Of a DNA stretch of 64,000 nt, positions 48,796 through 49,491 are shown in pieces. Position numbers and translations under genes: made by a program. Position 1 is the first letter of the stretch. The number at the start of each line of letters is the position of its first letter. The stretch is from NCBI RefSeq assembly GCF_055900595.2, contig NZ_CM148325.1; one strand, written 5' to 3'. The notes beneath the pieces are model-generated. The model was not told the DNA's origin, did no database searches, and saw only the letters and a program-made list of their open reading frames with translations.

Positions 48796-49491
48796 ATGCT
48801 GAAGCGTTTCTTTATTACCGGTACAGACACTTCTGTAGGGAAAACGGTGGTTTCCCGCGCATTGCTACAAGCGTTAGCCTCCCAGGGAAAAACGGTTGCG
48901 GGATATAAACCCGTAGCGAAGGGGAGCAAAGAGACACCCGAAGGGCTGCGTAATAAAGATGCCCTGGTGTTGCAGAGTGTTTCAACCATCGAACTGCCTT
49001 ATGAAGCAGTTAATCCTATCGCGTTAAGCGAAGAAGAAAGTAGCGTGGCGCACAGTTGCCCAATCAATTACACCCTCATTTCAAACGGCCTGGCAAACCT
49101 GACCGATAAAGTCGATCATGTCGTGGTAGAAGGGACTGGCGGCTGGCGCAGTCTGATGAATGATTTACGTCCGCTCTCTGAATGGGTGGTGCAGGAACAA
49201 CTGCCGGTGTTGATGGTTGTCGGTATTCAGGAAGGTTGCATTAACCATGCACTGCTGACAGCTCAGGCGATTGCCAACGACGGGCTGCCGCTCATTGGCT
49301 GGGTGGCTAACCGAATCAACCCAGGACTGGCGCATTATGCGGAAATCATTGATGTGCTGGGTAAAAAACTTCCAGCACCGCTCATTGGTGAACTGCCTTA
49401 TTTACCGCGCGCCGAACAGCGTGAACTGGGGCAATACATTCGCCTATCCATGCTGCGCAGTGTGCTGTCGGTAGATAGAGTCACGGTGTAA
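48796..49491 (+). CDS. ynfK: Dethiobiotin synthetase paralog (BioD2)
   Basis: ORF 48784..49491; start set at [24 protein letters not shown] (P-loop). Confidence 0.88.

Follow-up and report, generated by a model that had tools for sequence, protein, structure and literature searches.

Convergent overlaps and related 3'-end arrangements in E. coli

Tail-to-tail gene pairs in which opposite-strand coding sequences share their 3' ends have been catalogued in E. coli, where 75 convergent overlapping gene pairs were counted (Huvet & Stumpf 2014). Convergent overlaps account for about 7% of prokaryotic overlaps, and theirs is the sole orientation that tolerates long ones (Palleja 2008). The pair formed by ynfK and clcB is the same in kind as these E. 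coli pairs. It differs from other convergent pairs in that its overlap is conserved across the sampled Enterobacteriaceae and covers a key residue of ClcB, Tyr410, and not only dispensable tails.

Three groups of described arrangements are close to this locus. The first is that of the convergent excludons: the pair, under the designation clcB-bidA, appears in Table 1 of the ExcludonFinder study among 165 convergent excludons of MG1655, the criterion being that RNA-seq coverage overlaps in half or more of the samples (NAR 2025, PMC12288877). For 146 of these 165, a predicted terminator lies inside the transcription unit of the neighbour, which matches the hairpin described below inside clcB. 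The functional hallmarks of an excludon are mutual exclusion and RNase III processing, whereas clcB-bidA is listed from RNA-seq coverage; moreover, its overlap consists of coding sequence, as opposed to 3' UTRs only. The second group is Rho-terminated antisense read-through (PMC7815308), which includes the 3' end of ynfK itself and to which we infer that the hairpin is related. The third is that of the bidirectional or collision-positioning terminators of convergent genes (Ju et al. 2019; bioRxiv 10.1101/2022.10.23.513370). These are stem-loops without a strong U-tract, like the clcB hairpin; they are described as Rho-independent and located between gene boundaries, whereas the clcB hairpin is intracoding and belongs to a Rho-dependent locus.

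Public annotation and the excludon catalogue both include the pair, so the overlap is already known, and it is of a textbook type with little importance beyond the locus. The details that we add are incremental: the presence of Tyr410 in the overlap, a fixed ynfK stop facing a shifting clcB stop, and a frozen hairpin that is also found beside ynfK where clcB is missing. The ynfK-clcB arrangement is best described as a real and old tail-to-tail overlap that annotations already record, and not as a demonstrated regulatory device. It provides a worked example of two proteins sharing 48 bases and of which frame wins in the selective conflict.

Geometry and annotation of the ynfK-clcB overlap

The window analysed here is a stretch of 64,000 nucleotides from contig NZ_CM148325.1 (RefSeq assembly GCF_055900595.2), and coordinates refer to it unless K-12 is specified (Table 1). 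The initial annotation had placed a 48-bp convergent overlap between ynfK and clcB at 49444–49491, and these exact coordinates, with a shared segment of exactly 48 bp, were reproduced from the list of open reading frames and from the sequence. The ynfK gene, which has been renamed bidA and carries the RefSeq label bioD (dethiobiotin synthase), encodes 231 aa from the annotated start ATG at 48796 to the stop TAA at 49489–49491; its mechanical open reading frame extends from 48784 to 49491. The clcB stop is a TAG at 49446–49444 on the minus strand, read as CTA at 49444–49446 on the plus strand. The codons of the two genes coincide exactly, position 1 of one facing position 3 of the other, so that the ynfK Leu217 codon (CTA), read on the minus strand, is the clcB stop. 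At the other end of the overlap, the ynfK stop TAA lies opposite the clcB Leu403 codon (TTA).

Both genes are real coding sequences, as testified by family matches and public annotation: the Pfam AAA_26 match covers YnfK residues 3–207 and the Voltage_CLC match covers ClcB residues 60–402. In the K-12 MG1655 annotation, clcB (1665315..1666571) and bidA (1666524..1667219) overlap by the identical 48 bp, and PGAP/RefSeq also annotates the identical overlap in another strain, so that it already belongs to the reference annotation. The start of clcB differs by annotation, with ATG 50700 in K-12 (418 aa) and ATG 50736 in PGAP (430 aa), and the longest open reading frame starts with GTG at 50760; this choice has no bearing on the 3' overlap.

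Table 1. Features of the ynfK-clcB locus in window coordinates.
Feature	Position	Strand	Basis or remark
ynfK (bidA)	48796..49491	+	Open reading frame, Pfam, BioD structure alignment, public annotation
clcB	49444..50700	−	Open reading frame, Pfam, BLASTP to ClcA, public annotation; 418 aa from the K-12 start
Dual-coding overlap	49444..49491	both strands	ynfK codons 217–231 and stop; clcB codons 403–418 and stop
YnfK-specific tail (residues 222–231 of 221–231)	49459..49488	+	Beyond the BioD C-terminus
ClcB Tyr410 codon TAC	49471..49473	−	Opposite ynfK Val226 GTA; within the overlap
ynfK 3' untranslated stretch	49492..49591	+	Antisense to clcB; contains the published Rho-termination peak
Stem-loop ACCGGGGAGTA-GCTGA-TACTCCCCGGT	49534..49560	+	Perfect 11-bp stem; candidate ynfK 3'-end/terminator hairpin

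The YnfK tail and the ClcB central-site tyrosine

In the phmmer alignments with the BioD chains 1a82 and 1dts, the last YnfK residue to be aligned is 220, which corresponds to the last residue of BioD. Residues 221–231 form an 11-residue tail without a counterpart in BioD, and the length of this tail is kept in all loci, those devoid of clcB included.

On the opposite strand, BLASTP aligns ClcB residues 388–410 with ClcA residues 423–445 without gaps, the last pair being Tyr410/Tyr445, and ClcB residues 5–410 were aligned to residues 36–445 of PDB chain 1kpl, a Salmonella ClcA structure. ClcA Tyr445 is the central-site chloride-coordinating tyrosine of the ClC-ec1 structures; by its alignment to this residue, ClcB Tyr410 qualifies as a CLC central-site tyrosine. 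It does not vary among 12 ClcB-like proteins, the most distant of which has 38% identity. The distant homologues came from an exhaustive protein search, the word-indexed search having given close orthologues only. The nearest homologues beyond the ClcB orthologue group (P0128–P0139, 44–49% identity) stop 2–4 residues past the central tyrosine. Because these ClcB-like proteins end there, most of the final helix, which in ClcA comes after Tyr445, appears to be missing from the subfamily. In the shortest natural overlaps, of 27 bp, ClcB ends one residue past Tyr410.

Some ClcB variants are altered elsewhere in the protein. Certain E. coli and Shigella proteins carry in-frame 25-residue deletions in the membrane domain (P0034, representing a 154-member cluster, and P0009), and P0002 carries a 26-residue duplication in the same domain. 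These deletion and duplication variants may represent gene decay. The C-terminus is unchanged in the variants P0034, P0025, P0009 and P0002.

Conservation of the overlap in Enterobacteriaceae

A scan with one genome per species yielded 80 loci carrying a ynfK orthologue, ranging from Escherichia to Cedecea and Buttiauxella. The clcB-bearing comparison set consisted of 66 loci, namely 64 of the 80 species loci and two E. coli records. The initial annotation had proposed that both stop codons be confirmed in orthologues, and both are kept: the position of the ynfK stop is identical in 80/80 fetched loci, and in 66/66 clcB-bearing loci of Enterobacteriaceae clcB is convergent with ynfK and overlaps it, with both stops present.

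The extent of the overlap varies through the clcB side. It measures 48 bp in 36 of the 66 loci. The 15 loci with 45 bp belong to Salmonella and Citrobacter, the 12 with 66 bp mostly to Enterobacter, along with Leclercia and Pseudenterobacter, and a length of 27 bp occurs in 3. In every case, a Leu or Ser codon of ynfK supplies the clcB stop as its reverse complement: L217 (CTA/TTA) in 35 loci, S218 (TCA) in 15, L211 (CTA/TTA) in 12 and L224 (CTA/TTA) in 3. The codons able to supply an antisense stop, CTA, TTA and TCA, represent 8 of the 232 codons of ynfK (3.4%). As an in-register antisense stop needs one of them, the 8-residue ClcB tail past Tyr410 is within chance length.

These comparisons bear on whether the overlap could be an annotation artefact, with one stop mis-called and true protein ends that do not overlap. 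The argument in favour of such a reading is that mis-annotated 3' ends frequently account for the long convergent overlaps found in databases (Palleja 2008). Stop codons, however, come straight from the reading frame and are independent of the choice of the start; in addition, both frames are kept to their stops in 66 loci, the family-invariant Tyr410 of ClcB sits within the overlap, and the pattern of purifying selection described below runs through the whole of it. A mis-called stop was ruled out by the orthologue comparison and by the position of Tyr410; we give the artefact next to no probability and consider mis-annotation of the ynfK or clcB end to be excluded in practice. Since both stops are real and conserved, the further statement that the two mRNAs are necessarily complementary at their 3' ends stands for full-length transcripts, over at least 48 nt.

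Within E. coli, the 2.1-kb ynfK-clcB region matches 5,421 of 5,426 complete genomes. The allele present in the window (segment 48700–50800) is rare: at least 99% identity is reached in 9 of these 5,421 genomes, the others being at about 95.5%, while the uidABC segment of the same window (20000–22500) reaches at least 99% identity in 343 genomes. This suggests that the window has diverged locally at ynfK-clcB, possibly through recombination. The nearest species representative at this locus is Escherichia sp. MOD1-EC7003.

Selection within the overlap

Mean column entropy was computed by plus-frame codon position over the 66 sequences. The values at positions 1, 2 and 3 are 0.23, 0.05 and 1.12 in the part that is ynfK only, 1.30, 0.38 and 0.71 in the part that is clcB only, and 1.02, 0.32 and 0.81 in the overlap, where the pattern resembles that of the clcB frame. 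The third-position variability of ynfK reaches its gene-wide minimum in the last 9 codons (0.48 versus a mean of 1.18), and clcB shows a corresponding dip at residues 402–412. The entropy pattern and the low synonymous variability together are the footprint of dual coding. The ClcB frame dominates up to Tyr410, and the overlap is functionally constrained up to this residue; past it, both proteins are weakly constrained. A second patch of low synonymous variability was observed in ynfK at codons 116–126 (approximately 49141–49173; 0.80 versus the mean of 1.18), some 300 nt beyond the clcB stop in the minus-strand direction.

The shape of the shared ends can be explained as follows. YnfK has its 11-residue C-terminal tail beyond the BioD fold, and ClcB has to extend at least 21–24 nt into ynfK to encode the anion-coordinating Tyr410. 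Past this residue, the weakly constrained ClcB tail runs on until it meets an antisense stop in a Leu or Ser codon of ynfK (CTA, TTA or TCA). Such a tail, ending wherever ynfK offers an antisense stop, explains why the ynfK stop is fixed while that of clcB occurs at four sites. Selection on the overlap acts mainly through the ClcB frame, the synonymous sites of ynfK being frozen there.

A conserved hairpin inside clcB

The stem-loop listed in Table 1 is encoded by clcB codons 381–389 (TGEYQLLPG) and begins 42 nt past the ynfK stop. Its stem contains 7 G-C pairs out of 11, the 35-nt segment that includes it folds at −21.5 kcal/mol, and its 121-nt context (49480–49600) has a folding z of −3.4. 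It is a G+C-rich stem-loop of the sort found in intrinsic terminators. On the plus strand, the 8 nt after the stem contain 3 T in all clcB-bearing loci, short of a U-tract, and the terminator scan made no plus-strand call at the hairpin; a canonical intrinsic terminator on this strand was ruled out by the missing U-tract. The scan did call the hairpin on the minus strand in the window, with 12 pairs and the tail TATTGATTGC, and it gave no convincing candidate for a clcB terminator within ynfK on that strand.

Several observations indicate that the hairpin is under selection. The pairing is kept in 92.7% of cells over 57 distinct sequences, against about 40% or less when the partners are slid. 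One stem pair shows a two-sided change, being CG in 31 sequences and GC in 18. The replacement of GAG/CTC by CAG/CTG corresponds to Glu382Gln together with a synonymous change of Leu387; the covariation depends on this single substitution (Glu/Gln382), and the number of independent events behind it is probably small. Codon usage gives a further indication. Among the 120 fourfold codons of the two genes that specify an invariant amino acid, two only have zero third-position variation, Thr381 ACC and Pro388 CCC, and both are located in the stem; CCC represents only 18% of Pro codons across ynfK and clcB. The minimum of clcB synonymous variability, at codons 375–389, points the same way. The G-U versus C-A patterns within the hairpin are mixed and therefore do not identify the strand of the RNA under selection.

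No comparable hairpin was found in the paralogue clcA, nor in three distant ClcB-like genes located away from ynfK, where the complementarity is limited to 4–5 of 11 positions. A known RNA family was also considered and rejected: Rfam returned only a sub-threshold chance match to the SR6 antitoxin (23 bits versus a gathering score of 55).

The hairpin beside ynfK in loci without clcB

In 16 species loci, clcB is absent or truncated and the synteny on the left side (ynfM, ynfL, mlc, ynfK) is intact. A 3' remnant of clcB that includes the hairpin is present, or apparently present, in L013, L023, L074 and L080, and its clcB homology was detected for L013, L074 and L080. In L050, L083 and L049, little is left beyond a stem with the same arms, CCGGGCAG...CTGCCCGG, situated 9–16 nt past the ynfK stop. 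In L019 and L012, a similar stem is followed on the ynfK strand by T7 and T8, respectively, which makes a canonical terminator; L019 has the full 9-nt arms ACCGGGGAG...CTCCCCGGT, and L012 has only the GGGGAG/CTCCCC core. Finally, L041 and L042 carry an unrelated canonical terminator directly past the ynfK stop. This natural deletion series suggests the hairpin as part of the ynfK 3' end, and on these sequence comparisons it most likely belongs there as a candidate element. The hairpins of L012 and L019 could have arisen by convergence and not by descent. On this reading, the locus illustrates how the hairpin of a neighbour's 3' end can lie within a conserved transporter motif, yet be found beside ynfK without the transporter gene.

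An alternative is that the hairpin serves clcB, either as a terminator or pause site within the clcB mRNA that takes effect once translation is uncoupled, or as an mRNA-stability or ribosome-pausing element at CEMTGEY. The minus-strand call by the terminator scan, with its 12 pairs and U-rich tail, agrees with such a role. In addition, pair 17–25 is kept only as G-U on the minus-strand RNA in about half of the sequences, and the minimum of clcB synonymous variability falls at codons 375–389. Against it, a same-arm hairpin adjoins ynfK where clcB is deleted (L049, L050, L083, L019 and L012), and in the last two of these loci it is the ynfK strand that carries the T-run; the U-rich tail on the minus strand is not conserved (it is, for instance, GGC CTG TTG in many genera); and the distant ClcB-like genes are devoid of the hairpin. 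We consider a function of the hairpin for clcB improbable and favour its assignment to the ynfK 3' end.

One E. coli strain shows a distinct interruption of this region. In Z0117EC0005 (L001, approximately 2336–3043), an IS200/IS605 element is inserted at about window position 49533, the 5' foot of the hairpin, and the flanks are 100% identical to the window. In this strain, clcB is annotated as a pseudogene without its C-terminus and ynfK is intact, and the IS end adjoining ynfK has its own hairpin and T-run.

Transcript ends and the question of coupling

The 3' end of ynfK lies in a region of published Rho-dependent termination. A Rho termination region was reported at K-12 1666514(−), about window position 49501 and 10 nt past the ynfK stop (Adams 2021, PMC7815308), and it is classed in supplementary file 2 of this study as "primary ynfK, antisense clcB". 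The ynfK coverage was 85/11 without bicyclomycin (BCM) and 292/159 with it, giving a Rho score of 4.2 (p 1.5e-6) at a resolution of 800-nt windows (PMC7815308). The first 100 nt past the ynfK stop contain 29 C versus 19 G on the plus strand, and the C bias is weaker beyond. Term-seq 3' ends for ynfK or clcB, including any just past the stem, are absent from the lists in supplementary files 1 and 3 of Adams 2021, which low expression may explain, and also from the TERMITe supplements. The Rho result is the only locus-specific experimental one that we found, and it points to Rho limiting the antisense transcript, rather than to a demonstrated coupling of the two genes.

In the absence of space for an intergenic terminator, the ynfK 3'-end element apparently lies inside clcB. 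This element would be the conserved hairpin at 49534–49560; the ynfK read-through antisense to clcB is stopped by Rho. The hairpin may define or protect the ynfK 3' end, as its sequence and position suggest. If ynfK transcripts pass the hairpin, the complementarity between the two mRNAs would amount to 48 + 42 + 27 nt, about 118 nt or more, and such a stretch might affect clcB. Altogether, we hold with good confidence that the locus is a real and old dual-coding overlap which arose from compact gene ends, with a ynfK hairpin inside clcB and Rho limiting antisense read-through.

The other way to understand these data, suggested by the initial annotation, is an excludon-type coupling, in which the complementary 3' ends are cut by RNase III or the RNA polymerases collide; when FNR induces ynfK anaerobically, clcB expression would be expected to fall, and vice versa. 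The complementarity of ynfK and clcB is unavoidable and conserved family-wide, and clcB-bidA is catalogued as a convergent excludon from RNA-seq coverage (PMC12288877). Moreover, ynfK is among the operons directly activated by FNR (Myers 2013), and the place where polymerases collide is reportedly set, between convergent genes, by a stem-loop (Ju et al. 2019; bioRxiv 10.1101/2022.10.23.513370). However, the excludon call reflects coverage overlap, and the same would be obtained for every expressed gene pair whose coding sequences share 48 bp. Furthermore, we found in the literature no evidence at this locus for dsRNA, for cleavage by RNase III or for anticorrelated expression, and the pair is unmentioned in the main text of Altuvia 2018 on RNase III. 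The ynfK reads are few (85 per 800 nt upstream), so that collisions would be rare, and Rho already clears most of the ynfK read-through (85 to 11). On balance, we regard coupling of the excludon type as plausible but rather unlikely. If it were true, the anaerobic (FNR) control of a biotin-pathway paralogue would be linked to a chloride/proton transporter gene.

A more specific proposal, to which we attach little credence, combines both ideas: selection would have kept the hairpin as a ynfK terminator or as an element that positions collisions, so that it shaped the codons of the conserved clcB motif, and through it FNR-induced ynfK transcription would lower clcB anaerobically. Were the collision or terminator reading true, the locus would be an excludon in which the coding sequence of one gene contains the terminator of the other.

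A regulator encoded nearby has also been connected with this region. In a genomic SELEX study of HusR (YnfL), a weak peak without a HusR box was assigned to clcB<ynfK (PMC12844172). This peak lies at the 3' part of ynfK (1,664,668 in older K-12 coordinates), and the HusR gene is located two genes upstream.
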